Shown here: positions 7,101-53,390 of the stretch, in pieces | Numbering within the stretch: position 1 is the stretch's first letter | Layout of the letters: every line of letters begins with the position of its first letter | DNA from: Dehalococcoidia bacterium | Lineage (GTDB): Bacteria > Chloroflexota > Dehalococcoidia > UBA2979 | Length of the DNA: 64,000 nt | Assembly (NCBI GenBank): GCA_009692765.1 | Contig: SHYQ01000001.1 | Coordinates: forward strand, 29,096 to 93,095 | Direction of reading: 5' to 3' | Position numbers and translations under genes: made by a program | Notes under the pieces: model-generated | What the model was told of the DNA's origin: nothing | Seen by the model: the letters and a program-made list of their open reading frames with translations, nothing else | Databases searched by the model: none

Positions 7101-7638
7101 TCAGGCCTGCGGTATGGGCCTCAAGGAATGCGGTGGGGACGACGGGATCGAGACGGCGCGTCTCGCGATCGTGCTGCGCCGCCTCGAACAGCCCGAACGC
7201 GCGGCTGGAGAGGCGACAGAGGTTGGAGTAGCCCCGGCGGTCCTCCGCGAGCAGCGTGATGTGCGATCGCGTGCCGTCGGGCTCCTCGAGGGTGAGCTCG
7301 AGGCCGGTGATCGGTCGGAATCCCTCCTCCTTCGCGGAGCGCGCGAACTCCATCGATCCGTACATGGCGTCGTGGTCGGTCAGCGCCAGCGCGCGGTGTC
7401 CCTGCTGCCTCGCGGCGATCAGCAACTCGTCGATGCTCGACGCGCCCTCCAGCAGCGAGTAGTTCGAGTGCAGGTGCAGCTCCACGTACGGCGCATCGTC
7501 GAGGACGGACAGCGGCACCGGCTGCGCCGGATCGCGTGCAGCCATCGAGCGCGGCGTGTCGCCCTCGATGGCCGCGTCGATGGCGCGTCGCCGTGCCGCG
7601 AACGCCTCCCACGAGTACTCGGGCGCGTGCGGGCTCAT
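4123..7638 (-). CDS. dnaE2: error-prone DNA polymerase III alpha-like (DnaE2)
   Basis: 1171-aa ORF with N-terminal PHP motif (HLHSNYSLLEGAS) and Pol III alpha core. Last gene of the imuB cassette. ATGA overlap with the upstream small ORF. Confidence 0.9.
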   Translation of the reverse strand: MSPHAPEYSWEAFAARRRAIDAAIEGDTPRSMAARDPAQPVPLSVLDDAPYVELHLHSNYSLLEGASSIDELLIAARQQGHRALALTDHDAMYGSMEFARSAKEEGFRPITGLELTLEEPDGTRSHITLLAEDRRGYSNLCRLSSRAFGLFEAAQHDRETRRLDPVVPTAFLEAHTAGLIALTGCRDGLVPRLVQEHRVEEAETALHRWIAWFGRNNVFVELQDNLVYGDRPRNRTLVDLAARAGVEVVGTGDVHYHEPDRHRLQDVLVAIKHRKTLDESHRERRPNGEFALRSPQEQARRFAEYHPEAAANSVRIARRCAFDLTEDLGYSLPSPPTHDRRTPIEELRSLCMGRLDRKYSFGERDAALERLERELALVELNRLAGFFLVYHEVMTLAEVVAAEVRGPSRARSVTELPPGRGRGSSVASIICYLIGLSHIDPIRNRLGVDRFLNDGMRSLPDIDLDFPRDIRERLIERVYVKWGKEHAALVAIFPTYRIRSAVRDIGKVLGLPETEVDRLAKRARPYDRATHVGEEVARQRGIADPATAGSGSEYVTPQNVEDRAWQYLSEMAHQLAGFPRHLSQHVGGMVISSEPLIDCVPCQPARWPNRYLAHWDKDSIDDARMVKIDFLGLGMLSVVEECVDLVERHRHKVVDLSRSPDFNDPVIYDEICRGDTIGVFQIESRAQIAMLPRTQPRNLDDLTVQVSIVRPGPIVGGAVNPYVRRREARRRDPDYAIPMPECVRPALEETLGVVLFQDQVIEVAKRMGGFNAGEAETFRRAMSRKRSSQIMERYRQQFMAGALSHDDVSEADATKMFENLLGFAEFGFPKSHGAAFGLLAYQSTWLRHYYPPEYLCALLNEQPLGFYPPHVLTNDAQRHGVDVRRPDINLSDARCTVEEITPDAVQTDRRGPDHLDAVRVGLGYVRGVGEAGANRIEEERRRAGPYRSLFEFVQRTGLSREASTNLIRIGAFDVLGLNRRELLWQLGLFAGGPASGASVYRRGEQSGLRRPRDRQLRLALPTEQDQVRLADFSAYQRMAGDYAVLRLSPDSHPMQFLRPALGEGMVASRHLRTLSAGTRVDLAGLVVCRQQPLTAKGIIFLLLEDEFGMVNVLVSRDLVEAYRDIVRTAPFMRVQGRLEERAGEQRTLIAESVTQLFPAEVLAMPAGKSWG

Positions 7639-7919
7639 CGCGGGGCTCCCTCAGGGGCATTCTGAGGGGCGGAGTACGGCTGCTCGAACCACGCGCCGGT
7701 GGCGTCGTCGCGGAACAGCGTGAGCGGACGGCCGCCTTCGAGGATCACGCGGTAGTAGGTGCGCGCCTGCGAGACCTCGCGCCACCACGCCTCTGCGATG
7801 CGCCAGATCTCCTCGATCTGCTCGACGCGCGCCTCGTCACGCGCACCACGCCGATCGCGGCGCGCGATCGCCACCGGACGCGCGTCCGCATCGACGCGTA
7901 CGAGGAGGCCGCGCGGCAT
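7635..7919 (-). CDS. 94-aa ORF translationally coupled between imuB and dnaE2 (possible detached ImuB C-terminal domain or novel mutasome subunit)
   Basis: ATG at 7919. Protein-like sequence (EEIWRIAEAWWREV...YYRVILEGGRPLTLFRDDATGAWF). 4-nt overlap with the dnaE2 start. imuB is only 405 aa versus ~500-530 aa typical. Confidence 0.45.
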   Translation of the reverse strand: MPRGLLVRVDADARPVAIARRDRRGARDEARVEQIEEIWRIAEAWWREVSQARTYYRVILEGGRPLTLFRDDATGAWFEQPYSAPQNAPEGAPR

Positions 7920-7978
7920 GCCGATCGCGCGCAACGACGTGGAGGCTGCCGTGCGACGTTGCTGTGGGTGGGGCGCGC

Positions 7979-9196
7979 TCACGGGTCGTACTCCAGCAGC
8001 GCGCGGCGGCGCTCCGGCAGCCGGTGCCACGGCTCCACCTCCACAACGCGCGCAAGCGGCGACTCGCCGAAGCGCACCTTCAGATGACGCACCATCTCGT
8101 CGAGCTGCTCTCGGCGGCGCGTCTGCTCCATGAACAGGCTGTGCTGCCGCCCGCTCTCCTCGGTCAGCCCCGCGAGCTCCAGCGTGACCAGCGAGAACGG
8201 GCCTGGGAACTCCGCGTACTCGACCAGCGTGCGCAGCACCGTCCACATCCGTCCGCGATCGCCCAGCGGATCGCGCAGCACCTGCTCGCGCTCCCAGAGC
8301 GCGCCGCGCTCCGTCTCCGCGCGCAGCCGGAGCAGCCGCACGAAGCGGCGCCGCGCGCGAGGCTGCCGCAAGGCGCGCCCCAGCATCTGCTCCAGCGCGT
8401 GCAGCACGGACTCGCGGCTGACCAGCGGCGGCTCCGCCTGCACGTGCTCCTCCACGCGCTCGCGCTCCCACGGTTGCGGTCGCACCGGCCGCGGGTCCTC
8501 GCCGCGCGCGGCGAGCCATGCGACGCCACCCTCGAGGCCGAACTGCGCCTCGATGGCCGCGCGCGGCAATGCGGCGAACGCGCCACAGCGCTCGATGCCG
8601 AGCAGGTGCAGCCGCTCGACCGCATCGACCTCGAGCGGGAGCCGCGACACCAGCTCCGTCGCGAGGAACGTCGCGGCCTCGGTGAGCGGCACGTGCACCA
8701 CGGCGTTCGGCTCCGCGCGGTGCGCGGCCATCAGCGCGGTGAAGCGTGCATCCGCGACGCCGAGCTGCGGGCACAGTTGCGGCGGCACCCCGCCGAACAC
8801 CGCGCGCTTGAGGTCGCCGAGGCGCGGGTACAGCCCTTCGGTGCCGCGCAGGTCCGCGAAGACGATGCCCTGTCCCGCCTCTTCCACGAGCGGGCTGACC
8901 GCACACATCGCCTCGACGAGGTCGCGCGCGAACCGCGCCACCAGCGCCGGCCGAGGCTCCACGACCGACAGCATCGGGCACAGCCCGACCGCATCCCGCA
9001 GCGTCATCCCCACGCGGACGCCATGTATGCGCGCCTCGGGCGTCACATCCAGGACGCGGGCGTGCGCCTCGTCGCTCAGCACGGCAGGCATCCCGGCCAG
9101 CCCCGGCCGCTCCACCAGTTCGCACTGGAATGCGAGCGACGGAATCGCGAGGCAGGCAACGGACGCGGCGCGCGGACGCGGGACGGCTCTCGACAT
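7979..9196 (-). CDS. imuB: ImuB (Y-family polymerase-like, catalytically inactive mutasome subunit)
   Basis: N-terminus ASVACLAIPSLAFQCELVERP, typical of ImuB/UmuC-fold proteins. Internal ATG at 9196 preceded by a GGGGGGAA SD. Positioned directly upstream of dnaE2. Confidence 0.8.
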   Translation of the reverse strand: MSRAVPRPRAASVACLAIPSLAFQCELVERPGLAGMPAVLSDEAHARVLDVTPEARIHGVRVGMTLRDAVGLCPMLSVVEPRPALVARFARDLVEAMCAVSPLVEEAGQGIVFADLRGTEGLYPRLGDLKRAVFGGVPPQLCPQLGVADARFTALMAAHRAEPNAVVHVPLTEAATFLATELVSRLPLEVDAVERLHLLGIERCGAFAALPRAAIEAQFGLEGGVAWLAARGEDPRPVRPQPWERERVEEHVQAEPPLVSRESVLHALEQMLGRALRQPRARRRFVRLLRLRAETERGALWEREQVLRDPLGDRGRMWTVLRTLVEYAEFPGPFSLVTLELAGLTEESGRQHSLFMEQTRRREQLDEMVRHLKVRFGESPLARVVEVEPWHRLPERRRALLEYDP

Positions 9197-9231
9197 GGTT
9201 CCCCCCGCCAGAAGGCAGGGGCAGTGTACAA

Positions 9232-9243
9232 GAACTGGTGTTC
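9232..9243. promoter_or_regulatory. Cheo-type LexA (SOS) box GAAC-N4-GTTC (aAGAACtggtGTTCTaa), ~36 nt upstream of the imuB start
   Basis: Seen directly as a palindrome with AGAAC/GTTCT arms and a 4-nt spacer. Matches the Gram-positive/actinobacterial LexA operator consensus (CGAAC-N4-GTTCG). It is the only such motif in this intergenic region. Confidence 0.5.
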
Positions 9244-9293
9244 TAATACGAGGGATAGGTTTGGCGGGGCGCTCGGCGGGTAACTGCGTGCGG

Positions 9294-10148
9294 TCAGTCC
9301 GCCGGAGCGAACCCCTCGTCGCCTTCGCGCAGCTGCCGGCTCGGACCAAGCACCCGCTGGATCGTCGCGCGGGCGGTCGCATACTGCCGGAGGCCCCACC
9401 CGTCCTCTCGCGCCATGCGCAGCGTCGCCGGTCGCGTGCCAGCGGCGAAGGTCCGGGATCGCGGCTGCATGTACTGCGATACGTACTCCGCAGCCTCTAG
9501 GCCGGCGATCGTGTGGGCGAAGGTTTCGACGTCATCCATCGGCAGCATTGGGCTCACCGCGACGCCGATGGGGACGCCGGCCTCACGAAGCGCACGCAAC
9601 GCCCGCAGTCGCACGCCGATCGCGGGCGCGCTCGCCTGCGGTACGAGGCGAGCGCGTTCTGAGTCCGTGGTCACCGAGACGTTGACGCGGATGTGATCGA
9701 ACTGCTGAAGCAGATCGATGTCACGCGTCACGATCGGGCTGCGGGTCTGGATAGTCAGCCGCGGCTGGACCCCGGCGGCAAGGATCGCCAGCAGGACCGA
9801 GCGTGTCAGCCCCAGCCGGTGCTCGGCTGGTTGGTAGGGATCCGTCGCACTGGACATGTACACCGTATCACCGGATCGGAGCGTGCCATCCTGGCAGGCC
9901 TTCGTGATCAGCGTGGCGGCATTCTGCTTGGCCGAGGCCCAGTCCCCCCAGGTGTCCCGCTTCGCCGGTGTCGGCGCGAACGAGCGCGCGTAGCAGTACT
10001 CGCACGCGAATCGACATCCCGAGTACGGGTTGAGCGTGTACTGGTAACGGCGGATGAAGCCGGAAGCGAGCGTCAGGATGGAGCGCTCGTCCACGAGCGC
10101 AATCCCGGCGCGCTTCCCTCTCCCCAGACCGCCGTCGAGGTCGCTCAT
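9294..10148 (-). CDS. radical SAM protein, SplB-like (spore-photoproduct-lyase / DNA repair photolyase family, COG1533)
   Basis: Iron-sulfur motif ...NPYSGCRFACEYCYARS... The nearest canonical radical-SAM pattern is C-x3-C-x2-C (CEYCYARSFAPTP), which fits the SplB-like family. Sits immediately upstream of the SOS box and imuB. Confidence 0.75.
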   Translation of the reverse strand: MSDLDGGLGRGKRAGIALVDERSILTLASGFIRRYQYTLNPYSGCRFACEYCYARSFAPTPAKRDTWGDWASAKQNAATLITKACQDGTLRSGDTVYMSSATDPYQPAEHRLGLTRSVLLAILAAGVQPRLTIQTRSPIVTRDIDLLQQFDHIRVNVSVTTDSERARLVPQASAPAIGVRLRALRALREAGVPIGVAVSPMLPMDDVETFAHTIAGLEAAEYVSQYMQPRSRTFAAGTRPATLRMAREDGWGLRQYATARATIQRVLGPSRQLREGDEGFAPAD

Positions 10149-10350
10149 GGCTGAAGGGTATGGGGTATCAGCAACCTGGCAAGCACCAGATGGCACTCAC
10201 GCAGCCGGCGCCAGCCACCCGTTCGCAACGCGCCCGTTCTTGTCTGGAGCCATTCCGACGCAGCCGGCTGCCTCGCAATCACAGCGTTGCCGGTTCGAGC
10301 GGCGTGGCAGGATCGCGACGCCACGACGGACGCGGGATAAGATGTAGCGA

Positions 10351-20676: not shown

Positions 20677-21873
20677 ATGGTGACCGTCGAACAACAGTTC
20701 CCGACCCCCGTGACGAATGCCACCGAGGTGGCTTCGATCGCCGTCGCGATTGCGCGGGCGGGGTGGTTCGCGCTCGACCTCGAGTTCATGACCGAGGGGC
20801 GCTACGTCGCGGATCTCTCGCTGGTGCAGGTGGGCTGGGGCGATCACGAGTCCCCCACCGTCGCCGCGATCGACCCGCTGGAGGTCGACGCCCGCCCCGT
20901 CATCGAGCTCGTGGCGCGCGACGACGTCGAGGTCGTCCTCCACTCGGCGCAGGCCGACCTCGCGTTGATCGGCGCCGCCTTCGGCGTGCGTGCGACGCGC
21001 GTCTTCGACACCCAGATCGCAGCGGCGTTCTTGGGGCTGGGTGAGCAGATCGGCTACGGCGCGCTCGTCGAGCGCATGGCGGGCGTGCGCCTGGACAAGG
21101 GCGCGCAGTACACCGAGTGGTCGCGCCGCCCGCTTTCCGATGACCAGCTGCGCTATGCGCTGGACGACGTGCGCTACCTGCCCGCCGTCTGGCTGCAACT
21201 GCGGCAGCAGCTCGAGTCGCGCGGGCGCACCGCGTGGGTGCAGGAGGAGTGCGATCTCCTGGCGGACGCGTGGGCGGAACGCACGCCGCCGGACGAGATG
21301 TACCGCCGCGTCCGGGGCTGGAACGGCCTCAAGCGCCGCTCGTTGGGCGCGCTGCGTGCGGTCGCCGCGTGGCGCGAGCAGGAGGCGCTGCGGACCAACC
21401 GCCCGCCCTCGTGGATCATGAACGACCGGTCGCTGCTCGAACTCGCCCGCCGCCCCCCGCGCGAGGCCGCCGACCTGGGCGCGGTGCGCGGGCTGGGCGA
21501 GGGGACGGTGCAGCGCTACGGCGCGGCGATCCTAGAGGTGGTGGAGCGCGGCGTGAACGACCCGCCCGAGGATGAAGCCACCCCACCGCGCCTCCCGAAC
21601 CTCGGGCAGGCATGGCCCGCCATCCTCAGCGGCATCGTGCAGGCGCGCTGCTGTGAGGCGGAGATCGCGGCGCGCTTCGTGGCCACGCGCCACGAGATGG
21701 ACGAGATGATCGCGTGGTGGCTCACCGGCGATCGCGCGCAAGAGCCGCAGCTCCCGCTGCTGCGCGGCTGGCGTCGCGAACTCGCCGGGCGCGACCTGCT
21801 GGACTGGCTTCGCGGCGAGACGACCGTCGCCGTGGACATGCACACCGAGGCCGGCGTCCGCATCCAGCGCTAG
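20677..21873 (+). CDS. rnd: ribonuclease D (3'-5' exonuclease plus HRDC domain)
   Basis: DLEFMTEGRY...LHSAQADL DEDDy exonuclease motifs plus a C-terminal HRDC-like region. An alternative start at 20644 is possible. Confidence 0.8.
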   Translation: MVTVEQQFPTPVTNATEVASIAVAIARAGWFALDLEFMTEGRYVADLSLVQVGWGDHESPTVAAIDPLEVDARPVIELVARDDVEVVLHSAQADLALIGAAFGVRATRVFDTQIAAAFLGLGEQIGYGALVERMAGVRLDKGAQYTEWSRRPLSDDQLRYALDDVRYLPAVWLQLRQQLESRGRTAWVQEECDLLADAWAERTPPDEMYRRVRGWNGLKRRSLGALRAVAAWREQEALRTNRPPSWIMNDRSLLELARRPPREAADLGAVRGLGEGTVQRYGAAILEVVERGVNDPPEDEATPPRLPNLGQAWPAILSGIVQARCCEAEIAARFVATRHEMDEMIAWWLTGDRAQEPQLPLLRGWRRELAGRDLLDWLRGETTVAVDMHTEAGVRIQR

Positions 21874-42443: not shown

Positions 42444-43214
42444 CTAGCGGTCTAACTCCAGGATGAGCGGCGCGTGGTCGGAGGGCTTCGGCCCTTTGCG
42501 GAACTCCCGGTCGATGCCGCATGACCGCAGCGCGGCGGCGAGGTCCGGCGAGACGAGCGCGAGGTCGATGCGCAGGCCGCGCCCGCGATGGAAGTCGCCG
42601 CCGCGGTAGTCCCACCACGTGTACTGCGCCCCGTCCGCGTCCACGTGGCGGTAGGCGTCCACCAGGCCGCGGTCGAGAATCGCGCGCAGGCGTCCGCGCT
42701 CCTCGGGCGTGACGTGCGTCGACTGCGCGAACGTCGCCGGGCTGTACACATCGACGTCCGCGGGCGCGATGTTGAAGTCGCCGGCGACGACCAGCGGCTC
42801 TCCCGCGAGCGCGCTGACGCGCTCCGCGATCATCCCCAGGAATTCGAGCTTGGCGGGGAACATCGGATCATCCAGCGTGCGGCCGTTGATCACGTAGACG
42901 CTCGCCACGCGCACCCCGCCCACGGTCGCCTCGATCCATCGCGCCTCGTCGGGCAGCGGCGCGCCGGGGAGTCCGCAGACGACATCGGTGATCGGCGTAC
43001 CCAGCGGCACGAGGATCGCCACACCCGCCCACTGTCCCGCGCTGTGATCGACGGCCGCGTAGCCGGCCTCGAGGAACGCGCCGCGCGGGAAGGCCTCCGC
43101 GGTGGTCTTCGTCTCCTGCAGGCACAGGACGTCGGGATGGTGGACGTGCAGGAACTCCAGCACGCGGGGGATGCGCGCCTTCACGGAGTTCACGTTCCAC
43201 GTGGCGATCTTCAT
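42444..43214 (-). CDS. xthA: exodeoxyribonuclease III (AP endonuclease)
   Basis: MKIATWNVNS...LCLQETK...GQWAGVAIL... EEP-fold motifs. Confidence 0.9.
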   Translation of the reverse strand: MKIATWNVNSVKARIPRVLEFLHVHHPDVLCLQETKTTAEAFPRGAFLEAGYAAVDHSAGQWAGVAILVPLGTPITDVVCGLPGAPLPDEARWIEATVGGVRVASVYVINGRTLDDPMFPAKLEFLGMIAERVSALAGEPLVVAGDFNIAPADVDVYSPATFAQSTHVTPEERGRLRAILDRGLVDAYRHVDADGAQYTWWDYRGGDFHRGRGLRIDLALVSPDLAAALRSCGIDREFRKGPKPSDHAPLILELDR

Positions 43215-43893: not shown

Positions 43894-44523
43894 ATGTCCG
43901 ACTTCCGCAGGCCGTGCACCCGCATTCCGATCGTGGGCGCTGTCGTGCTCGTGCTTGTTGCGCTGGGTGTCGCCCTCGCGGGCGCGCTCCTCGCTCCGAA
44001 GAGCCAGCCCGCCGCGTCGAGGGCCTCGGGCACCCCGCAAGCGGCGGGGCCGTCGCCGCTCGCCAGCAGACCCGCGGCGTCGAGCGACGATCCGTGGGAC
44101 TCCTGCGCCGCCGCCGGCACGATCGACCGGCCCGACCCGCGCTACCTCGGCGATGGCACGCGCGCGGTGATCCAGGACGCGCTGGCGATCGCGGAGCGAC
44201 GGCCTCAGCGCTTCGCGGACCCGGCCGCGCGGCGCGTGGCGATCCCGTGGCGCTGCATGGACGGCGCGGTATGGGCGTGCGACCAGGGGGCGAATCTCCC
44301 CTGCGGCGCCGCGAACCAGAACCGCGAGCCGACCGCGGCGATGAATACGTACTGCGCGGAGCACCCGGATTGGGGGATTCCCCTGTACGTCAGCGGGCAC
44401 TCGACGATCTTCGCGTGGAGTTGCTACGGCGGGCGAGCGGTCATCGACCGGCAGCAGTTTCAGGTGGATGCGCGCGGCTTCGTCGCCAACTTCTGGTACC
44501 GCCTCGAACGTCCGCGGTCCTAG
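43894..44523 (+). CDS. Cys-rich secreted/anchored hypothetical protein
   Basis: MSDFRRPCTRIPIVGAVVLVLVALGVALAGALLA signal/anchor. Eight Cys in the mature domain. Confidence 0.45.
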   Translation: MSDFRRPCTRIPIVGAVVLVLVALGVALAGALLAPKSQPAASRASGTPQAAGPSPLASRPAASSDDPWDSCAAAGTIDRPDPRYLGDGTRAVIQDALAIAERRPQRFADPAARRVAIPWRCMDGAVWACDQGANLPCGAANQNREPTAAMNTYCAEHPDWGIPLYVSGHSTIFAWSCYGGRAVIDRQQFQVDARGFVANFWYRLERPRS

Positions 44524-45005
44524 ATGGCGCCCGGCTTGAAGACCATCACCGCGAGGATCAGCAGCAGGATCGCAAGGTCGATGCGCGACGCGAGCAGCAT
44601 CCGGTCGCCTAGTCCGACCACCTCCGGATGACCGACGCCGGGATGCCGCCGAAGGAGCGCCTGTAGCTGGCGGCCCTTCGGCGCCAGGTAGCCCATCTCG
44701 ATCCCGAGGCTCGCGAATACGCCGAGGAAGCCAGCGCTGATCCACGGCGCGGAAAGGATCCCGCCGATGATCCCCATCCCGATCCCCGCCATGATCGTGA
44801 GGATGGAGGCGGGCATGAAGAACGTCCTGCGGAATCGTTCGGTGCGGACGACCAACGCCGCCATCTCCTCCCACGCCCCGTCGGCGCGCACCTGCTGCGC
44901 CAGGAGCGCGAGGATCAATCCGCCACCCACCCACGCGACCGCGGCGGCGACGTGCACGAACACCAGCACGTGATAGAGGTCAAACAAGCGCACACTTCCG
45001 ATCAC
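44520..45005 (-). CDS. DUF2269-family integral membrane protein
   Basis: 161-aa, 4-TM protein. Confidence 0.55.
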   Translation of the reverse strand: MIGSVRLFDLYHVLVFVHVAAAVAWVGGGLILALLAQQVRADGAWEEMAALVVRTERFRRTFFMPASILTIMAGIGMGIIGGILSAPWISAGFLGVFASLGIEMGYLAPKGRQLQALLRRHPGVGHPEVVGLGDRMLLASRIDLAILLLILAVMVFKPGAI

Positions 45006-45096
45006 TGGCCCACATCATCAGCCCAGATCATCAGCCGGGGTCTTTGGTACATCTCGCGCACTCTGCGGCGCGTGGGCCGGTCGCGTCAAGACGCCG

Positions 45097-47655
45097 TCAT
45101 GCCTCGATCGCTGCACGCGCGGCGGCCGAGGCGCCAGCCCCGCGCCGGACGAGCGTGTCGCCGGTGGCCGGATCGCGGTCCAGCACGACCAGGTCCTCGA
45201 TCCGCTCGCGCAGCGCGGGGACGTGGCTGACGATCACCACGAGCCGGTCCTCCGATTCCGTGACGAGCCGCTCGATGCCCTCCATCGCGAGGTCGAGGTG
45301 CTCCTCGTCCAGGCTGCCGAAGCCCTCGTCGAGGAAGAACGCGTCGAGCCGTCCGCCCCCCTGCGTCACCATCTCGGCGAGCGCCAGCGCGAGCGACAGC
45401 GACGCGAGGAACGTCTCGCCGCCGGAGAGCGTGCTGCTGCGGCGCGCATGCTCGGCTGCGGTGAGGTCGATCACATCGAACGAGCCGTCGCCCGCGAAGC
45501 GGTAGCGCCCGCGCGACAGCCGCTCGAACCACTCGCTCCCGATCTCCGCGAGCGACGTCCGTTCGTCCTCCAGCAGGTAGTTCAGAAACTTCGAGGGCGT
45601 GAGGTCAGTAGACAGTCGCCGGTACACGGTGCGACGCGCCTCGATCGCCTGCGACTGCTGCTCGGCGTCGGCGGCCTCTGCGATGCGACGCTCGGCCTCT
45701 GCGATCAGCGCATCGAGCACGGCCACCCGCTGCTTCGCCTCACCGACCGCGTCGTCGAACGACGTCGCTTGGGGCACGCCGCCCGACGCCAGCGCCGCGC
45801 CGCGACGCTGCGCCGCGGCCTCCGCAGCGGCCGTCGCGGCCGTCTCCCGTTCCGTGACCGCCGCGCGCTCGGTGCGCCAGCGCTCGCGGACGCCGTCGAG
45901 CAGCGCGCGCACCGCCGCCGGCGAGTCTTCCTCGCGCACCTCCACGCCGAGCGTCCCTGCGACCATCGCGAGCCGCACGCGGAGCGAGGCGAGCGCGGTG
46001 CGGCCGGCGTCGTGCGCGGCAGAGGCCGCCGCTTCGGCGGCGCGTGCGGTCTGCGCGCTCCGCGACGCCGTCTCCAGCGCCGCCTCCGCCACCGCGAGCG
46101 ACGCCCGCAGCGCCGCGAGCCGCTGTGCCGCGTCCCCCTCGCCGAGGAGGGCCCGCACGCCGTCGTCCGCGGCGGCAAGCGCCGCGGTGGCAGCGGCGAG
46201 CGCGGCCTCCGTGGCGGTGAGCGTCGCCGTCGCGGCCTCCAGCTGTTGCGCGACGCCCGTCGCGGTTGCGGAAGCGTGCGCCGCCGCGTCGCGCGCCGCC
46301 TTCGCGGCGGCGTCGGCGGTGTGCAGCGCCGCTTGTGCGGCGGCGCGCTCGCCGTGCGCGCGGTCGAGATCGGGCGAGGCCGCGCCCGCGGGCAGCTTCG
46401 CGATCTTGCGGCCGCACACCGGACACGGGTCTCCCGCCGCGATCCCCTCGCGCAGCGTGATCGCGAAGTCGAGGCGCTCCGCCGCATGCAGCGCCGCGTC
46501 GGCCGTAGCCACGGCCGCCTCGGCCTTCGTGAGCGCGCCCTCGGTGCGCTTCGCGGTCGTGGCGGCGTCCCGCGCCACCGCTTGCGCTGCGGCGGCCTGC
46601 GCGCGCGCGGCGTCGAGGGCGGTGCGCGCGGCATCACGTTGGCGCGCGCGGTCGGCGTGCGTCTCGCGCGCGTGACCCTGCGCCTGCAGCGCGCTCGCGG
46701 CCGCCTCTAGGCGCTCCGGCCCGCCCGCCTCGCGCAGCGCAGTCTCGCGACCCTCGCGGGCATGCGCCTCCGCCGCTTCCGCCTGCTCGCGCGCCTGTCC
46801 CGCCCGTGCTGCGGTCTCGATGAGCGCCGCGAAGCCATCGATCGCGTGGTTGCTCTCCTCGGGGCGCGGCAGGCCGCTCCGCAGCGCGTCGATCTCGACG
46901 GCGCGGCGCTGCGCACTCAGCACCTGCTCGCGCGCCTCGCGTTCCGTGCGCGTGTGCTGCTCGATCGCCGGGCGCAGCGCCTCGAGCGACGCGAGTCGCG
47001 CGGCGTGCGCCTGGTGCTCGGTGCGTCGCTCGAGCACGCTCGTCCGGGCCGCCGCCACCTCGGCGACAAGATGCGCGAGCGTGCTGGTGGCGAGATCTGC
47101 CGCGTGCAGGCGATCGCGCGCCGCTACCTGCATCGCGCCGACGCGGTCGAGGTTGAAGACGCCCTGGAGCACCCGGTCGCGCTCGGTTGGCGTCGCGTTC
47201 AGGAAGTCGGCGAACCGGTTCTGCGCGAGCAGCACCGATCGCCGGAAGGCATCGAAGTCCAGTCCCAGCAACTGCGTGACGCCGTCCGTGACCGCCTTCT
47301 GCCCGCTGACCCCCGCGCCGCGGTCGGGTTCGCGCGTCTGTTCGTCGTACGGGTACAGCGTGTGGTTGGGGGCGCCGATGTTCCGGATCGCGCGCACGAC
47401 CTGCCACGCCTGCCCCTCCACGCGGAAGGTGAGCGCGACCTGAGCGACCGCGCGGCGCTGGTTGATCAGCCCCTTCGTGTCCGCGCCCGACGACGGCGTG
47501 CGTCCGTACAGCGCGAACGCGATCGCATCGAGGATGCTCGACTTGCCGCTGCCGATCGGCCCGACGATCCCGACCAGCCGGCGGTCACGCCAGTCGAAGC
47601 GCGTCTCCTCGGCGAATGAGCGGAAGCCGTTGACGACGAGTTCAAGCGGTCGCAT
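45097..47655 (-). CDS. sbcC: SbcC/Rad50-like SMC ATPase
   Basis: N-terminal MRPLELVVNGFRSFAEE...GPIGSGKSSILDAI Walker A. Long Ala-rich coiled coil with central CPVCG zinc hook. C-terminal LSGGE...FFLDEGFGSLD. Confidence 0.85.
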   Translation of the reverse strand: MRPLELVVNGFRSFAEETRFDWRDRRLVGIVGPIGSGKSSILDAIAFALYGRTPSSGADTKGLINQRRAVAQVALTFRVEGQAWQVVRAIRNIGAPNHTLYPYDEQTREPDRGAGVSGQKAVTDGVTQLLGLDFDAFRRSVLLAQNRFADFLNATPTERDRVLQGVFNLDRVGAMQVAARDRLHAADLATSTLAHLVAEVAAARTSVLERRTEHQAHAARLASLEALRPAIEQHTRTEREAREQVLSAQRRAVEIDALRSGLPRPEESNHAIDGFAALIETAARAGQAREQAEAAEAHAREGRETALREAGGPERLEAAASALQAQGHARETHADRARQRDAARTALDAARAQAAAAQAVARDAATTAKRTEGALTKAEAAVATADAALHAAERLDFAITLREGIAAGDPCPVCGRKIAKLPAGAASPDLDRAHGERAAAQAALHTADAAAKAARDAAAHASATATGVAQQLEAATATLTATEAALAAATAALAAADDGVRALLGEGDAAQRLAALRASLAVAEAALETASRSAQTARAAEAAASAAHDAGRTALASLRVRLAMVAGTLGVEVREEDSPAAVRALLDGVRERWRTERAAVTERETAATAAAEAAAQRRGAALASGGVPQATSFDDAVGEAKQRVAVLDALIAEAERRIAEAADAEQQSQAIEARRTVYRRLSTDLTPSKFLNYLLEDERTSLAEIGSEWFERLSRGRYRFAGDGSFDVIDLTAAEHARRSSTLSGGETFLASLSLALALAEMVTQGGGRLDAFFLDEGFGSLDEEHLDLAMEGIERLVTESEDRLVVIVSHVPALRERIEDLVVLDRDPATGDTLVRRGAGASAAARAAIEA

Positions 47656-48829
47656 CGACGACCTCGTCGTGCAGTTCGGTGAACGCGGTACGCACCGCGT
47701 CCGACGGCGGCTCGCCGTGTTCGCGCTCGTGGTACTCGCCGTAGAGTTCGTCCCACGTCCGGCCGGCGCGGCTCGCGGCACGCGCGGTCGGCCGCGGGTA
47801 CTCCGCGCGCACCCGCACGAGGCGGTCGAAGGTCTCGGTCGCGCGCGCCGCGAGCGCCGGGTCCGGCCCCGTGGTCGTCACCACCAGGTCGAGGTACGCG
47901 CCCGCGAACTCGTCGCGCCGAGCGAGCAGCTCGTCCCACGTCCCCTGCGCGCGCACGAGCGGGAAGCGTCGCGGTGTGTCGAGCGCAATCGACCTGACCG
48001 TGGCAGAGACGCGCGGCGTCGCCTCGATGAGCACGACGCGCTTCTGCTCATCGGCCTCGCCGAAGTCGAGGGGGAGCAGCGAGCCCGCGTACTCCGCGGG
48101 GCCCGGCGCACCCGGCACACGCTGCGGCGCGTGGATGTGGCCCATCGCGATGTACTGCGGGCCGGGCGGCAGCCCCGCGGCGTCGATCGTGTACGTCTCG
48201 CCCATGTGCAGCTCGCGCTCGCCGCGCCCGTATTGTTGGCCGTGCACCACAGCGCCGTTCACCGTGGCGTGGGCCACGAGGACCGTCACCGCCTCGGCGG
48301 CCTCGCGGTCGAGCGCCTCGCCCATCGCGCGGAAGATGCCGCTCAAGCGGTCCTTGTACTCGCCGTACCACTGGCCGGACTCGAGCATGAAGTCCACCAC
48401 GCGCCCCTCGCGCAGGAAGGGGACGCACGCGAGCGCCGCACGCCCGCCGGGCGTGTCGAGGATCAGCAGGCCGCCCCCCTCGCCGCCGCTGCCGGGGCGC
48501 CTGATGTGCCCGACGAGGTGCACCCCCATGGGCTGCACCAGCGGCGCGAGCACCTCGAACAGGTCGCCCGAGTCATGGTTGCCGGCGATCGCGACGACCG
48601 GGCGTCGCCCGCCATCGGCAAGGCGGATCAGCGCCTCGAGGCCGTCGCCGAGCGCGTCGGTGGGCGGCGTCGCGCGGTCCCACAGGTCGCCGGAGACGAC
48701 GACGAGGTCGACCGCGTGCGCCTCCGCGATCCGCTGCACTTCGCGCAGCGCCTCGCGGAACTCCGCGGCGCGGTCGTAGCGTCCGATGTGCTTGCCGATG
48801 TGCCAGTCGGAGGTGTGCAGGATGCGCAT
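47642..48829 (-). CDS. sbcD: SbcD/Mre11-like nuclease
   Basis: MRILHTSDWHIG...DLVVVSGDLWD calcineurin-like phosphoesterase motifs. Overlaps the sbcC start by 14 nt. Confidence 0.85.
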   Translation of the reverse strand: MRILHTSDWHIGKHIGRYDRAAEFREALREVQRIAEAHAVDLVVVSGDLWDRATPPTDALGDGLEALIRLADGGRRPVVAIAGNHDSGDLFEVLAPLVQPMGVHLVGHIRRPGSGGEGGGLLILDTPGGRAALACVPFLREGRVVDFMLESGQWYGEYKDRLSGIFRAMGEALDREAAEAVTVLVAHATVNGAVVHGQQYGRGERELHMGETYTIDAAGLPPGPQYIAMGHIHAPQRVPGAPGPAEYAGSLLPLDFGEADEQKRVVLIEATPRVSATVRSIALDTPRRFPLVRAQGTWDELLARRDEFAGAYLDLVVTTTGPDPALAARATETFDRLVRVRAEYPRPTARAASRAGRTWDELYGEYHEREHGEPPSDAVRTAFTELHDEVVDATA

Positions 48830-48852
48830 CGTGGTGCCTCGTGGTCTTCTGC

Positions 48853-50682
48853 CTACAGGCCGCGGAACGGGTCGGCGTCGGCCTCGCGGCGCACCTCGTC
48901 GGGGCGCGTGGCCCAGGGGACGCGCGGGAAGTTGAGGACGATCGGCACCGGCACCGCGGGCTGGCCGAGCACCATCGTGCCGGGCTTCAGCAGCCGCGCG
49001 CGCGCCTTCGTCGAGGGGAGCATCCAGCCGTACTCGGCGCGCTCCGACTCCGCGGCATCGAGGCGGCCGGTGACGCGGATCGATGCGTTCTCGAGCACGT
49101 CCGGCGCGACGCGCGACGCGCTCTGCTGCGCGCCGATCATCAGAACGCCGAGCGATCGCCCGCGCTGTGCGATGTCGACCAGCATCTCCTTCAGCGGGCT
49201 CTGGCCCTCGCGCGGCGCGTACTTGTTCAGCTCGTCCAGCACCATGATCGAGAGCGGAAGGCGCTGGCCGCTCTCCTCCTTGTCGCGGAACGTCTCGCGC
49301 AGCAGCGCACCGACGACGAAGCGCTGCGCGAGGTCGTGCAGGTTCTGGATCGCGACGACGCTGACCGTGGCGGCGAGGCGGTCGATGCGGTGGCTCTCCC
49401 CGTCGCGGACGAGGCGGCCGAGGCGGGAGTCCATCGAGGCGGCGTGGAGGCGGCGCATGAACGCGCTCACCGTGCCGCCCTGCACGCGACCGCTCCACGC
49501 GTAGTCGGGCTCCGCGCCGTCCTCCGGTTCGAGGTGCGTCGCGATCTCATCGGCGAGGTCACGCAGCGTGCGGATCACGCGCTCCGGGCCGCGTGCATGG
49601 ACCGCGCGCTGTCCGCCCTCGCGGTCGTTCTGCTCCCGCAGCACCACCGCGCCCGACGCGCCGAGGACATCGACGGCGAGGCGCTTCAACTGTGCGCGCA
49701 CGCGCTCTTCGACGAAGGAGATCTGGTTGCGCGCGTCCGTCGCGTCCGTGAAGACGAACTCCAACAGGCCCTCGTCGATGAACTCGCGCGGCGTCCAGGT
49801 GAACACGGCGACGCCGTCTGCGCGCCCGCTGACGTCCGGCATCAGCACGTCGCCGGCGTGGGCGCGCAGGGGCGCCCAGTACGCGACCGTGGGCACGCCC
49901 GGCGTCGCGTGCGGCGTCGAGGCGCGCAAGCCGGGCGTCGCAAGCGCGAACGGCGTCGGCTCGACGCCCAGCCGCCGCCACGCCGCCGCGTCGTCGTCGG
50001 TGAACTCCGTACCCGGGCGGTCGAGGTAGAGCAGGTCCTCGCCCTTCACGTTGAAGACGAGCACGCGCGTGTTCGCGGCTGATGGGCCGAGCAGCTCCGG
50101 GTGCCCCGCGAGCAGGCGCACGAAGAAGAACGCGAACGTCGTCTTCGTCGCGACCCCGGAGACGCCGGCGATCGACATGTGTCCGCCCTTTGTCCCGTCG
50201 AAGAAGTCGAGGTCCAGGTACACCGGCTCGCCGTCACGCCCGCGCCCCACCGCCAGCGGGTGGCGCATCTCGTCCGCATACAGCGCGCGGTCCCGGTCGA
50301 CGCCGCGCGCGCGGAAGACCTCCTCGCCGGGGTCGGCGGCGACCCACACCTCGGGGTCGACGCGCGTGACGGCGACCCGCGCGGTGCGCACCTTCGCTGC
50401 GGGCTGGAGGCCGCCGCCCATCGCGTAGTCGCCCGCGATGCGATGCACGTCCGACTCGTACGCCGCGCCCTCGTAGGTCGCCTCGCTTTCCACGACGACG
50501 CCGTAGGTGCACAGCGTGCCGACGCCGGGCACCTCGGTGCGCACGACGACGAGGTCGTCCACCGCGAGGTGCGCCCCCTCGTCGAGCACGGCGCGGAACT
50601 CCTGTGAGGAGGTGTGCCCCACGCCCACGACCCGCCCGACGCGCTCGCTGGTCTGGAGGGCTGGCATCGCTTCGTCGGTCAT
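48853..50682 (-). CDS. herA: HerA-like (DUF87) FtsK-clade ATPase/helicase
   Basis: Start MTDEAMPALQT after a GGAG SD. ...SIMVLDELNKYAPREG...IAQRGRSLGVLMIGAQQSASR is the HerA/DUF87 signature region. Start overlaps the nurA stop (TGATG). Confidence 0.7.
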   Translation of the reverse strand: MTDEAMPALQTSERVGRVVGVGHTSSQEFRAVLDEGAHLAVDDLVVVRTEVPGVGTLCTYGVVVESEATYEGAAYESDVHRIAGDYAMGGGLQPAAKVRTARVAVTRVDPEVWVAADPGEEVFRARGVDRDRALYADEMRHPLAVGRGRDGEPVYLDLDFFDGTKGGHMSIAGVSGVATKTTFAFFFVRLLAGHPELLGPSAANTRVLVFNVKGEDLLYLDRPGTEFTDDDAAAWRRLGVEPTPFALATPGLRASTPHATPGVPTVAYWAPLRAHAGDVLMPDVSGRADGVAVFTWTPREFIDEGLLEFVFTDATDARNQISFVEERVRAQLKRLAVDVLGASGAVVLREQNDREGGQRAVHARGPERVIRTLRDLADEIATHLEPEDGAEPDYAWSGRVQGGTVSAFMRRLHAASMDSRLGRLVRDGESHRIDRLAATVSVVAIQNLHDLAQRFVVGALLRETFRDKEESGQRLPLSIMVLDELNKYAPREGQSPLKEMLVDIAQRGRSLGVLMIGAQQSASRVAPDVLENASIRVTGRLDAAESERAEYGWMLPSTKARARLLKPGTMVLGQPAVPVPIVLNFPRVPWATRPDEVRREADADPFRGL

Positions 50683-51656
50683 CAGGCGGCTCCGGCAGGT
50701 GCGCCGTGGATGGCGGCGCGCAGCGCGCGGCGCACCAGCCCCTCGTCGCCGAGCCAGCGGCGCAGCTCTCTTTCGAGCGCGGCGATCGGCACAAGGTTCT
50801 GTGGCGCGCGCGCATCCAGGTGCAGCGGCATCGCCGCGAGCGGCAGCAGCGCCGCCGTGCGGTCGGCGAGGACGCGCGCGCGCTCGATGCCGATCGCCTC
50901 GGGCGCCTCGACGCGCGCGATGCCCGACCACGAGTGGCCGTAGGGAATCTCCGCGAGGCGGACGTACCACGAGTAGCGCTGGAACTGGTGGCCGGGGATA
51001 AGGAACACCGGCGTCCGCTCGCCCGCCCGCAGCGCACCGATGATCCGCGATTCCGGCGGTCGCAGGTACGACTGGTGGTGGCTCTTGATGTAGCCCACCG
51101 CCTCGTGGGGGCCGATGTCGTCGAGGCGTCCGTCCGCCACCACGAACCAGCCCTCGCGCAGCAGGGCGAGCACCGTCGCCACCTCCGCCTGCCCGCGTCG
51201 CCGGTCGAGGCGCGCGCGCAACTCCGGGATGTCGCGCCCCTCGGCCGCCTCGACGACGTAATCGAGGCCGGGGACGTGCGGCAGGTCCGGGAGCATCGCG
51301 TCGCCGAACACGGCGACACGGCCGACCGTCACATCGCGGAACGTCGAGCGCCCGGCCTCGCGGTCCCACAGCGAAGCGCCGACCGCGTAGGCGGCGCAGA
51401 TGCCGGGCAGCGGGCCGCCGTCATTCTCAGTATCGGGGTCGTCCAGCGTGAGGCGCGCCTCGATGCGCTGCACACCGTCGACGAAGGCGACACGGCGCAC
51501 GCCATCGTCGCGGCCGGGGAGGGGTTCCCACGCGCCGCGCACCTCGACCGCAGTGTCGACGACCACTTCGCCGGGGAGCGTGTCCGGGTCGGACTCGAAG
51601 GGAGCGCCGTACTCGGGGGACCAGTCCTCCACGTACAGTCTCACCATCCGGGGCAT
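50682..51656 (-). CDS. nurA: NurA-like nuclease
   Basis: RNase-H-like NurA pattern (VAFVDG...VVADGRLDD...GYIKSHHQSY...RYSWYVRL). First gene of the four-gene operon. Confidence 0.65.
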   Translation of the reverse strand: MPRMVRLYVEDWSPEYGAPFESDPDTLPGEVVVDTAVEVRGAWEPLPGRDDGVRRVAFVDGVQRIEARLTLDDPDTENDGGPLPGICAAYAVGASLWDREAGRSTFRDVTVGRVAVFGDAMLPDLPHVPGLDYVVEAAEGRDIPELRARLDRRRGQAEVATVLALLREGWFVVADGRLDDIGPHEAVGYIKSHHQSYLRPPESRIIGALRAGERTPVFLIPGHQFQRYSWYVRLAEIPYGHSWSGIARVEAPEAIGIERARVLADRTAALLPLAAMPLHLDARAPQNLVPIAALERELRRWLGDEGLVRRALRAAIHGAPAGAA

Positions 51657-51678
51657 TCTAGCGGGTCGCGCGCTAGAA
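51656..51678. promoter_or_regulatory. inverted repeat TTCTAGCG-N7-CGCTAGAA overlapping the nurA translation start region (candidate operator)
   Basis: Seen directly: cattctagcgggtcgcgcgctagaacg has 8-9-bp perfect arms. At the 5' end of the nurA-herA-sbcDC operon. Confidence 0.4.
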
Positions 51679-51734
51679 CGCACGTTCGGCTGGCGAGCGG
51701 GCCAGACGAGCCGCGGGTGCGCCTCGCGCGGGCG

Positions 51735-51956
51735 CTACCTCGCACCGGTCGCGCTTCCGCGCAGGCCCATGGTGTGCACGGCGATCGCCAGCAGCAGCGT
51801 CGCGCCGAGGATCGGCGTGAACGTCCGCTTGAGCATCGCCTCCTCCAGCAGCAGCGCCGCCACGAACCCGCTGATCCCGATGGTGACGCCCCAGAAGATC
51901 ACGTGGTCGATCCAGGCGGGCCGCGCGCGCTCCGAGAGCAGTGCCGCGAACACGAG
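51735..51956 (-). CDS. small 2-TM membrane protein or C-terminal remnant of a membrane protein
   Basis: Hydrophobic ORF (...DHVIFWGVTIGISGFVAALLL...ILGATLLLAIAVH). Start unclear. Confidence 0.25.
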   Translation of the reverse strand, partial: LVFAALLSERARPAWIDHVIFWGVTIGISGFVAALLLEEAMLKRTFTPILGATLLLAIAVHTMGLRGSATGAR

Positions 51957-52124
51957 GACGCGTTGGTCATCACGCCCACGAAGATTGTTGCGCGACCGAT
52001 AGCGCGCCCCCCGATTTCGCAAGTGACGTCTATCGAAACCGGCCAGTGAGTGGCCGGCGGCGGCGCACGTGACGGCAGGCCCCGCTGACGTACGAGGCGG
52101 CGGGGCCTGCCCCCGGGGGGGGGT

Positions 52125-53390
52125 CTACACGGCGGGAGCACGCCCCGCATCAGGCTCCGCAGGCTGGCCGGCATCGATCGGGCCGGTCTCCGGCATCGCC
52201 CACGCGCACGCGGCTAGCGCTGGCGCCAGCGCGCAGGCGATGGCGAGGCCGGGGGTGAACGATCCGGTGAGGTCGCGCAGGTACCCGACCAGCAGCGGCA
52301 CGACGAACCCGGCGAGGTTAGCCGCGCCCAGCACCATCGCCACCGCGATCCCGACACGGGCGGCGTTCATGCCCGGGAGCTCCATCGGGATCGTGAAGAC
52401 CACCGGCATGAAGACCCAGCCGACGATGCCCAGCAGCAGGATGCTGGGGATCAGCAGCAGCGGCAGGTCGATCGCGGTCGCCCCGGCGGCGAACAGCGGG
52501 ATGCCGAGGCCCCCGGCGATCAGGAACGGACGTCGCCGCGGGATACGCACGGGCAGCGTCGATCCGATGAGCGCGCCGAGGATACCGAAGAACGAGAGCA
52601 GCCCGCTGATCGTCCCCGCCTGCTCCAACGAGTAGCCCCGTTGCTCGTGGTAGAACGTCGGCAGCCACGACTGGAGCGAGATAAAGGCGCCGAGCGCGCC
52701 CGCCAGGCCGATCGACAGCAGCACCACGACGCGGCTCCGGGCCACCGCGACGAGGTCGCCGAGCGTGAAGTTCGCCGCCGCGCCCGAGGCCTCGGCGGGC
52801 GTCCGGCCGAGCACCAGCCACAACGCGGTCGCCGCCAGTGCCGCCGCGCCGAAGGTGGACAGCGCGCCGTCCCAGCCGAGCGGCCCGGCCAGCCGCGGCC
52901 CGAGCAGCATCGACGTCGTCACCCCGAGGCTCTGGGCGATGACGTTCGCGCCGTTGACGACCGACAGTTCCTTCGTCGGGAACCAGCGCAGCAGCACGCC
53001 GGGAGTCGCGCTGAGGTTGATCGCGGCGCCCAGCGCGAACGAGACGCGCGAGGCGATCAGCAGCGGGAAGGAGCCGGCGAACAGCGAGAGCGCTGTGCAA
53101 CCCATGAGCACGCCGCCGAGGACCAGCGACCACCGCGACCCCAGCCGCGCCGCGAGCAGGCTCGCCGGGACGAGGGCGAGCGCCACCGCAAGCGAGGTGA
53201 CGCCGACCAGCAGGCTCACCGTGGCGTTGTCGACCGCGAACGCCTCGATGATCAGTGGGAACAGCGGCGCGACCGCAAGGAAACTCAGGCCCATCGCGAA
53301 CTGGAGCAGCAGGATCGAGGCTTCGATGACCCAGCGGTAGGAGCGCGCGTCGGTCGCTTCGGCGGCCTCGGTTGTTGGGGTATGTGTCAC
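52125..53390 (-). CDS. MFS transporter
   Basis: 421 aa, 12 predicted TM helices, MFS loop motifs. Confidence 0.8.
   Translation of the reverse strand: MTHTPTTEAAEATDARSYRWVIEASILLLQFAMGLSFLAVAPLFPLIIEAFAVDNATVSLLVGVTSLAVALALVPASLLAARLGSRWSLVLGGVLMGCTALSLFAGSFPLLIASRVSFALGAAINLSATPGVLLRWFPTKELSVVNGANVIAQSLGVTTSMLLGPRLAGPLGWDGALSTFGAAALAATALWLVLGRTPAEASGAAANFTLGDLVAVARSRVVVLLSIGLAGALGAFISLQSWLPTFYHEQRGYSLEQAGTISGLLSFFGILGALIGSTLPVRIPRRRPFLIAGGLGIPLFAAGATAIDLPLLLIPSILLLGIVGWVFMPVVFTIPMELPGMNAARVGIAVAMVLGAANLAGFVVPLLVGYLRDLTGSFTPGLAIACALAPALAACAWAMPETGPIDAGQPAEPDAGRAPAV

Follow-up and report, generated by a model that had tools for sequence, protein, structure and literature searches.

A conserved nurA-herA-sbcD-sbcC operon behind a predicted LexA box in a Dehalococcoidia bacterium

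Introduction

In archaea such as Sulfolobus and Pyrococcus, the herA-mre11-rad50-nurA operon, which is inducible by damage (UV) (PMC5448004, PMC3326311), unites two protein pairs with a presumed division of labour: Mre11-Rad50 recognises DNA ends and HerA-NurA carries out long-range resection of the 5' strand. Here we analyse a cluster of the same four protein families, with the same presumed split of tasks, in a Dehalococcoidia bacterium of the phylum Chloroflexota (metagenome-assembled genome; assembly GCA_009692765.1). The cluster has the order nurA-herA-sbcD-sbcC and lies on a stretch of 64,000 nucleotides (nt; contig SHYQ01000001.1, positions 29,096 to 93,095), hereafter the window. We propose that it is a DNA-damage-inducible end-resection operon, most likely repressed by LexA.

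The closest described bacterial proteins are NurA and HerA of Deinococcus radiodurans (DrNurA and DrHerA; DR_0836/DR_0837; PDB 7F6D, 7WRW/7WRX), which have in common with those described here the Walker A motif GxSGVATKT, the Walker B DE and the pore arginines; their genes are coupled in the order nurA-herA, as in the window (PMC9960219). In D. radiodurans and Thermus, nurA/herA are not linked to sbcCD (PMC4663267, PMC5448004), whereas here sbcD and sbcC follow directly. The same four-gene content occurs in Oceanithermus profundus (nurA-hepA-sbcD-sbcC, Ocepr_1235 region), whose sbcD and sbcC likewise lie behind the gene for the HerA homologue, a layout noted as an archaeal-like architecture in a bacterium; that cluster belongs to another phylum, Deinococcota, and was mentioned without analysis (PMC5448004). 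On the regulatory side, sbcDC of Staphylococcus aureus carries a Cheo-type LexA box, CGAACAAATGTTCT, the conserved positions of which match CGAACGTGCGTTCT in the window; S. aureus is devoid of NurA-HerA (PMC11442139), whereas here the predicted LexA box heads a four-gene unit that starts with nurA. All studies of bacterial NurA-HerA so far concern species in which it is not linked to SbcCD. In a large clade, most of it uncultivated, linkage of the four genes in one operon is the rule, and with the locus it can be tested whether bacterial Mre11-Rad50 and HerA-NurA work together in the way presumed for their archaeal counterparts.

Results

Four tightly coupled genes

The four-gene block spans 45097-51647 (Table 1). 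At the nurA/herA junction, stop and start codons overlap by 1 nt in TGATG; herA and sbcD are separated by 23 nt that include a GAGG, and sbcD and sbcC overlap by 14 nt, again with GAGG ahead of the overlap. An earlier reading of this DNA, made from the nucleotide sequence alone (the sequence-only reading), had described four minus-strand genes with exactly these junctions, and all of them are present. In agreement, an independent gene call for the contig at the European Nucleotide Archive (ENA) yields the same four products (321, 609, 395 and 852 amino acids (aa)). Shine-Dalgarno sequences precede the three internal genes herA, sbcD and sbcC; ahead of nurA there is no sign of one, nor is there room for it between the -10 box and the ATG. 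The start of nurA had been placed at GTG 51683. This codon was discarded, as the ENA call (321 aa) and all orthologues point to ATG 51647, which opens the conserved stretch M-x-R-L-Y-V-E-x-W. Judged by their junctions, the four genes form one tightly, translationally coupled operon, and their co-transcription is predicted. The window has a GC content of ~71%, which is unremarkable.

Protein identities

Sequence comparison by phmmer aligns the second protein with DrHerA (7F6D_B) over residues 6-597 of 609 (E 2.1e-103), a match that spans the HAS-barrel, RecA-like and helical domains of HerA. Its Walker A motif GVSGVATKT (G173-T181) aligns residue by residue with GISGVATKT of DrHerA, is invariant in the family alignment and places K180 and T181 at DrHerA K175 and T176, which bind the ATP β-phosphate and the metal (PMC9960219). 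The sequence-only reading had called this P-loop atypical; however, GxSGVATKT is invariant in the family, and mutation of DrHerA K175 impairs both ATPase activity and resection, so that the residue is experimentally required (PMC9960219). Equally invariant are Walker B D483/E484 and the pore arginines R491 and R548, corresponding to D487/E488, R495 and R552 of DrHerA. The first protein matches DrNurA (7F6D_H) over residues 38-311 (E 8.4e-29) and Thermotoga maritima TM1739 (1ZUP) with E 2.8e-8, and both of its DG motifs align with those of DrNurA and TM1739. Each of D57 (in FVDG), E155 and D172 (in VADG) is conserved to at least 97% in a set of 74 orthologues and has its counterpart in the RNase H-like D-E-D of archaeal NurA, E155 being mapped by position only; in Pf NurA the catalytic acidic residues are D51, E105 and D126 (PMC3300031). 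On the strength of these alignments, proteins 1 and 2 are bacterial-type NurA and HerA of the D. radiodurans kind. By analogy, a HerA hexamer seated on a NurA dimer is predicted to translocate double-stranded DNA at the expense of ATP.

SbcD is recognised by the NCBIfam model TIGR00619 sbcd (139.4 bits versus a cut-off of 77.65) and by the Pfam models Metallophos (60.7 versus 21.5) and SbcD_C (24.4 versus 24.4). It holds the five calcineurin-like phosphoesterase motifs DWH, GDLWD, GNHD, VAH and GHIH, and its nearest solved structure is Escherichia coli SbcD, followed by that of T. maritima and then by archaeal Mre11. SbcC exceeds the cut-offs of Pfam AAA_23, SMC_N and SbcC_Walker_B. Its best NCBIfam match, TIGR00618 sbcc, reaches 220 bits and stays below the cut-off of 478.5, and archaeal Rad50 models in NCBIfam score at most 66 bits. 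By these scores SbcC is a short (852 aa), divergent family member. All expected elements can be located: Walker A GPIGSGKSS (residues 32-40), the Q-loop (142-146), the zinc hook CPVC(G) at residues 411-414 of 852 (DNA 46414-46425), the signature LSGGE (743-747), Walker B FFLDEGFG (773-780) and the H-loop VSHV (809-812). Again the nearest solved structure is that of the E. coli protein (E 4.5e-29), ahead of T. maritima and then archaeal Rad50. Homology, motifs and junctions thereby bear out the four identities (NurA, HerA, SbcD/Mre11 and SbcC/Rad50) and the tight coupling given in the sequence-only reading.

That reading had further termed the module archaeal-type and seen in it the archaeal cluster recreated. 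The four families do stand together in one cluster; gene order and protein lineage, in contrast, are not archaeal. Here nurA comes first, whereas it is last in herA-mre11-rad50-nurA, and the nearest proteins are the bacterial DrHerA, DrNurA and E. coli SbcCD. The Pfam NurA and DUF87 models, largely built on archaeal proteins, do not match, and SbcD and SbcC score far better on bacterial models. The two kinds of complex also differ in their NurA-HerA interface, which is ionic in the bacterial and hydrophobic in the archaeal complex (PMC9960219). Since all four proteins are nearest to bacterial ones, the module is by homology bacterial in lineage and archaeal-like in gene content only.

Conservation of the operon

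To place the locus among its relatives, HerA was used to scan one genome per GTDB species, which gave at least 589 loci with close HerA relatives. The best 80 of these, from Chloroflexota/Dehalococcoidia, Acidimicrobiia and other Actinomycetota, were compared, and only loci with sufficient sequence around herA were counted. In 68 of 70 loci nurA is the gene immediately upstream of herA; sbcD comes immediately downstream of herA in 67 of 71, and sbcC comes after sbcD without exception (69 of 69). Flanking genes vary even between relatives whose HerA proteins are 87-90% identical, and nurA-herA-sbcD-sbcC therefore constitutes the conserved unit. The arrangement had been considered unusual for bacteria. 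This view did not hold: the same order is found in 67-69 of ~70 evaluable relatives and was noted in O. profundus (PMC5448004). Across a large group of Chloroflexota and Actinomycetota, nurA-herA-sbcD-sbcC is the usual gene order.

With HerA ~65% identical across the phyla, recent horizontal transfer from Acidimicrobiia was suspected but not supported, as a midpoint-rooted neighbour-joining tree of HerA sets Chloroflexota apart from Actinomycetota. This split by phylum fits vertical inheritance and not a mobile island. We regard the locus as a chromosomal, vertically inherited new member of a known operon type and not as a new kind of machinery.

A few loci depart from the common layout. In two marine Chloroflexota, L060 (11843-13618) and L061, an opposite-strand gene of 591 aa and unknown function splits herA from sbcD; in L059 the same two genes are 4.3 kb apart, and in L008 and L010 an insertion of ~0.9 kb separates nurA from herA. 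Apparent gaps of 1.1-2 kb before sbcC in 18 loci were dismissed: in L006, the one that was checked, the gap is a tblastn artefact and the same 14-nt overlap is present.

The nurA promoter region

Upstream of nurA, at -41 to -28 from the ATG, we find the predicted Cheo-type LexA (SOS) box CGAACGTGCGTTCT, with its GAAC-N4-GTTC core at 51676-51687 (-40 to -29). It covers the -35 region and lies 14 nt upstream of the putative -10 box TAGAAT (15 nt if counted from the core). LexA of Firmicutes and Actinobacteria has GAAC-N4-GTTC as its site, and variants are reported for Chloroflexi/Dehalococcoides (PMC4951493). As the box covers the -35 region, the operon is most likely LexA-repressed and induced by damage. 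The position of TAGAAT, 7 nt before the ATG, implies that the nurA mRNA would be leaderless.

For the window and its four closest lineages (L001, L081, L082 and L085), alignment of the sequence ahead of nurA reveals two conserved blocks separated by a variable spacer of 13 nt. The first reads [C/A]GAACG[T/A]GCG[T/C]TCT and the second is TAGAAT, which is invariant in the five and ends 7-9 nt before the ATG. At -40 to -42, the LexA box is perfect in L001, L081 and L085 and has one mismatch in L082; among 83 loci it occurs at this position of nurA only in the window's nearest relatives. For comparison, perfect GAAC-N4-GTTC sites have a density of 0.017 per kb across the 83 loci (1.36 Mb). Beyond the close relatives, a TAnnnT hexamer stands at the equivalent place in the alignable orthologous nurA promoters.

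The sequence-only reading had put forward a different element, a perfect inverted repeat TTCTAGCG-N7-CGCTAGAA overlapping the nurA start, as a candidate operator that was not a Cheo/LexA box. The repeat is indeed perfect and unique in the window, with a single copy even when 3 mismatches are allowed. Given that the conserved start is ATG 51647, it lies at -9 to -31 upstream of the start and not over it, and a canonical predicted LexA box abuts and overlaps it: the left arm shares the 3' end of CGAACGTGCGTTCT, and the right arm contains the -10 hexamer.

The repeat could be the operator of a dedicated dimeric repressor that acts beside or instead of LexA and occludes the -10 box. Its overlap with the -10 hexamer and the promoter spacer would suit such a role, A/T-rich perfect 8+8 dyads are rare in the window (4 versus 0.4 in shuffles), and the corresponding place in L085 likewise holds a perfect 8+8 dyad, TTCTACGC/GCGTAGAA, in which the inner 3 bp are changed on both sides (GCG/CGC in the window, CGC/GCG in L085), so that the exchange looks compensatory. 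The covariation is not significant, however, as 35 of 500 shuffles do as well in the pair-count test, and in L001, L081 and L082, three of the five close lineages, no more than 5-6 of the 8 arm positions pair. In both arms the outer 5 bp (the GTTCT-A tail and TAGAA), which are conserved in the relatives, are already accounted for by two independently conserved elements, GTTCT and TAGAAT. Moreover, perfect 8+8 dyads with spacers of 3-12 nt are frequent in the window (56 versus ~37 in shuffles, about one per 1.1 kb), and the repeat has a lone copy in 64 kb. A separate operator function is thus unproven and less likely than the explanation by LexA box and -10 element; we judge it improbable.

In L003 (~9000-9030) the -10 box stands 21 nt from the ATG instead of 7-9 nt, because GCGAGACTG is locally duplicated; its LexA box is degenerate. 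We take this locus as a case of promoter turnover within the clade.

Damage-type promoters in Actinomycetota

In most of the actinomycetotal loci (L005-L080), a putative promoter of the RecA-NDp/PafBC type is located 20-35 nt upstream of nurA, for example TGTCACACCCCCTCGGTACCAT. RecA-NDp promoters have the consensus tTGTCRgtg-8nt-TAnnnT (PMC5656591) and are bound by the activator PafBC (PMC8223512). The motif GTCR-N11-TAnnnT precedes nurA in 52 of 68 orthologous promoters, 31 of the 68 having the strict TGTCR form, against a background of 0.003 per 75 nt. In 50 of these 52 the TAnnnT end is positioned 6-9 nt before the start codon, in 34 of them exactly 7 nt, so that tTGTCR-N11-TAnnnT sits right before a predicted leaderless nurA start. 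No Chloroflexota locus among the orthologues has such a motif ahead of nurA, and TGTCR-N11-TAnnnT has zero matches on either strand of the window, where the LexA box occupies the equivalent position.

The prevalence of the motif implies that the four-gene operon would belong to a PafBC-type regulon in Acidimicrobiia and related classes; we found no paper that states this membership. On the basis of these motifs, the operon appears to be wired to two different damage regulators in two phyla. The actinomycetotal promoters thereby support a role in the damage response independently of the LexA box.

Further LexA-type motifs in the window

GAAC-N4-GTTC occurs five times in the window, whereas 0.41 copies are expected and none of 100 shuffles reaches five. 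One further copy lies in a perfect palindromic LexA box, AGAACACCAGTTCT, at 9231-9244, 36 nt upstream of an imuB-like gene that is followed by dnaE2. Together, box and genes make up a candidate SOS mutagenesis cassette (4123-9244, minus strand). Cassettes of the imuB-dnaE2 type are LexA-controlled and part of the minimal SOS core across bacteria (PMC4951493).

The imuB-like gene has as its direct upstream neighbour a minus-strand gene (9294-10196) for a radical SAM protein of the PA0069/Rv2578c family (SplB-like 'DNA repair photolyase' group), an orthologous group reported to be LexA-regulated in several phyla (PMC4951493). An RNase D gene on the plus strand (20677-21873; TIGR01388, 266 bits, just below the cut-off) contains a perfect GAAC-N4-GTTC at 20689-20700, in codons 5-8 and right after a TATCGT hexamer; this copy may be a third LexA site or may have arisen by chance. 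The two other copies (10906 and 61130) fall inside open reading frames.

Table 1. Positions of the operon genes, nurA promoter elements and SOS-associated genes in the window
Feature	Position	Strand	Remarks
nurA	50682-51647	minus	321 aa; predicted bacterial-type NurA 5'-3' nuclease
herA	48853-50682	minus	609 aa; predicted bacterial-type HerA hexameric dsDNA translocase
sbcD	47642-48829	minus	395 aa; Mre11-family nuclease
sbcC	45097-47655	minus	852 aa; Rad50-family ATPase, CPVC zinc hook
Cheo-type LexA (SOS) box CGAACGTGCGTTCT	51675-51688	minus	perfect GAAC-N4-GTTC; predicted site
-10 hexamer TAGAAT	51655-51660	minus	7 nt upstream of nurA ATG; putative promoter
Palindrome TTCTAGCG-N7-CGCTAGAA	51656-51678		perfect 8+8; LexA-box tail, variable spacer and -10 box
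imuB-like Y-family polymerase gene	7979-9196	minus	weak Pol IV matches
dnaE2	4123-7638	minus	NF004225, 948 bits, above cut-off; follows imuB-like gene

Discussion

Proposed role

We propose that nurA-herA-sbcD-sbcC is a DNA-damage-inducible end-resection operon that most likely belongs to the SOS regulon and is repressed by LexA, a reading to which we assign a probability of about 0.75. While LexA occupies the -35 region, the operon would be silent; upon DNA damage, RecA-stimulated autocleavage of LexA would allow induction of the four genes from one promoter upstream of nurA. As suggested by the E. coli enzyme, SbcCD would recognise and clip double-strand ends that are blocked, dirty or closed into hairpins. 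By analogy with the D. radiodurans complex, a NurA dimer would cap a hexameric ring of HerA, through which duplex DNA would be pumped; by homology, the strands would separate at the NurA pin and NurA would degrade the 5' strand (PMC9960219), leaving a 3' tail for RecA.

Several results weigh against this proposal. Neither NurA (no family in Pfam or NCBIfam at E<=0.01) nor HerA (no match in Pfam or NCBIfam, DUF87/HerA models included) is recognised by the model libraries, and precomputed Pfam annotation is empty for all NurA/HerA homologues. Failure of such models had been named beforehand as refuting the two assignments, and the libraries do leave both proteins unmatched; the sequences of the solved structure (7F6D), however, support both. 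Because the comparison with solved structures is decisive, we do not count the missing matches against the assignments; on those alignments, they are a blind spot of the libraries. As to regulation, the LexA box is missing in the more distant Chloroflexota orthologues L003, L004, L060, L067 and L069, and the LexA wiring is therefore lineage-specific. A tblastn search of the 64-kb window with E. coli and B. subtilis LexA sequences gave no credible match to a lexA gene, scans of 44400-52300 for a sigma-70 consensus promoter and intrinsic terminators found nothing, and no hairpin was found 3' of sbcC, so that the transcript has no defined 3' end. Finally, the sensitivity of nurA/herA mutants of D. 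radiodurans and T. thermophilus to damage is slight or even paradoxical (PMC4663267, PMC5448004), which leaves any in vivo role assigned to bacterial NurA-HerA tentative.

Alternative explanations

The sequence-only reading had also allowed for a role in defence. As an anti-phage or anti-plasmid system, the locus would degrade foreign linear DNA and resemble either HerA-plus-nuclease systems (Sir2-HerA, DUF4297-HerA) or SMC/Rad50-like ones (Lamassu, Wadjet-like). Defence modules that pair HerA with a nuclease are known (PDB 8XAU, 8WIV), and restriction of linear phage DNA by end-degrading enzymes has been discussed for archaeal HerA-NurA (PMC3326311). PADLOC, however, returns only weak, partial matches, of the HerA C-terminus to its 'HerA' model (3e-6, residues 433-540) and to mad8, and of SbcC to mad3 and LmuB, whereas NurA has none. 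HerA itself is related to DrHerA with E 2e-103 and to defence HerA structures with 0.0018 to 1.4. Defence islands are patchy in distribution, whereas this operon is near-universal and syntenic in its clade, with a tree that follows the phyla, and its neighbours are housekeeping genes (transporters and xthA) without mobile or defence genes among them. The dual wiring to LexA and RecA-NDp-type promoters in two phyla likewise argues for repair and against phage defence. We therefore consider a defence function very unlikely, and DNA repair the better fit.

E. coli SbcCD is best known for the cleavage of hairpins and palindromes, and the proteins may be correctly identified and still have a main task other than double-strand break (DSB) resection, namely replication-fork or hairpin processing or the control of recombination and ploidy, as has been suggested for Deinococcus and Thermus, with damage induction being secondary. 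The genetics provide some grounds for this: in D. radiodurans, nurA/herA mutants reveal little contribution to radioresistance, and recombination and growth are affected (PMC4663267), and the temperature and UV phenotypes of Thermus hepA mutants misfit simple resection (PMC5448004). On the other side stand the linkage of nurA-herA to sbcDC in ~70 genomes, their LexA or RecA-NDp promoters and the finding that DrNurA-HerA resects the 5' strand in vitro and yields a 3' tail (PMC9960219). A main function outside resection seems to us unlikely, though well ahead of defence.

An extension of the end-resection proposal goes further. In Chloroflexota and Acidimicrobiia the four proteins might act as one physically coupled 'resectosome', with SbcCD handing ends straight over to HerA-NurA in the manner proposed for archaea, and might constitute the principal DSB resection machinery in place of RecBCD, AddAB and AdnAB; the operon would then have been captured independently by LexA in this Dehalococcoidia lineage and by a PafBC-type activator in Actinomycetota. 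We offer this as a tentative idea that is more probably wrong than right.

Annotation and neighbourhood

The bacterial NurA/HerA clade comprises more than 5,500 clusters at 90% identity without a Pfam or NCBIfam model match. The operon is invisible to Pfam and NCBIfam, and its proteins are therefore annotated only as 'ATP-binding protein' or 'hypothetical'; for the NurA/HerA clade the source annotations read 'ATP-binding protein', 'ATPase' or 'hypothetical'. The interest of the locus is modest and resides in the spread of the operon, this annotation blind spot and the dual LexA / RecA-NDp wiring.

An Rfam scan of the whole window gave no match. Downstream of sbcC, at a distance of 1.9 kb and beyond three small genes, lies xthA (exodeoxyribonuclease III; TIGR00633, 227 bits; 42444-43214, minus strand). 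This neighbourhood is common only to the window and L001, and xthA is thus probably not part of the unit. On the other side of the operon, just past the stop codon of an upstream gene for a major facilitator superfamily (MFS) transporter, a perfect 12-bp G+C-rich inverted repeat, GGCAGGCCCCGC / GCGGGGCCTGCC, with a 14-nt loop and without a T-run (52074-52111), could serve as a terminator and thereby shield the promoter region of nurA.

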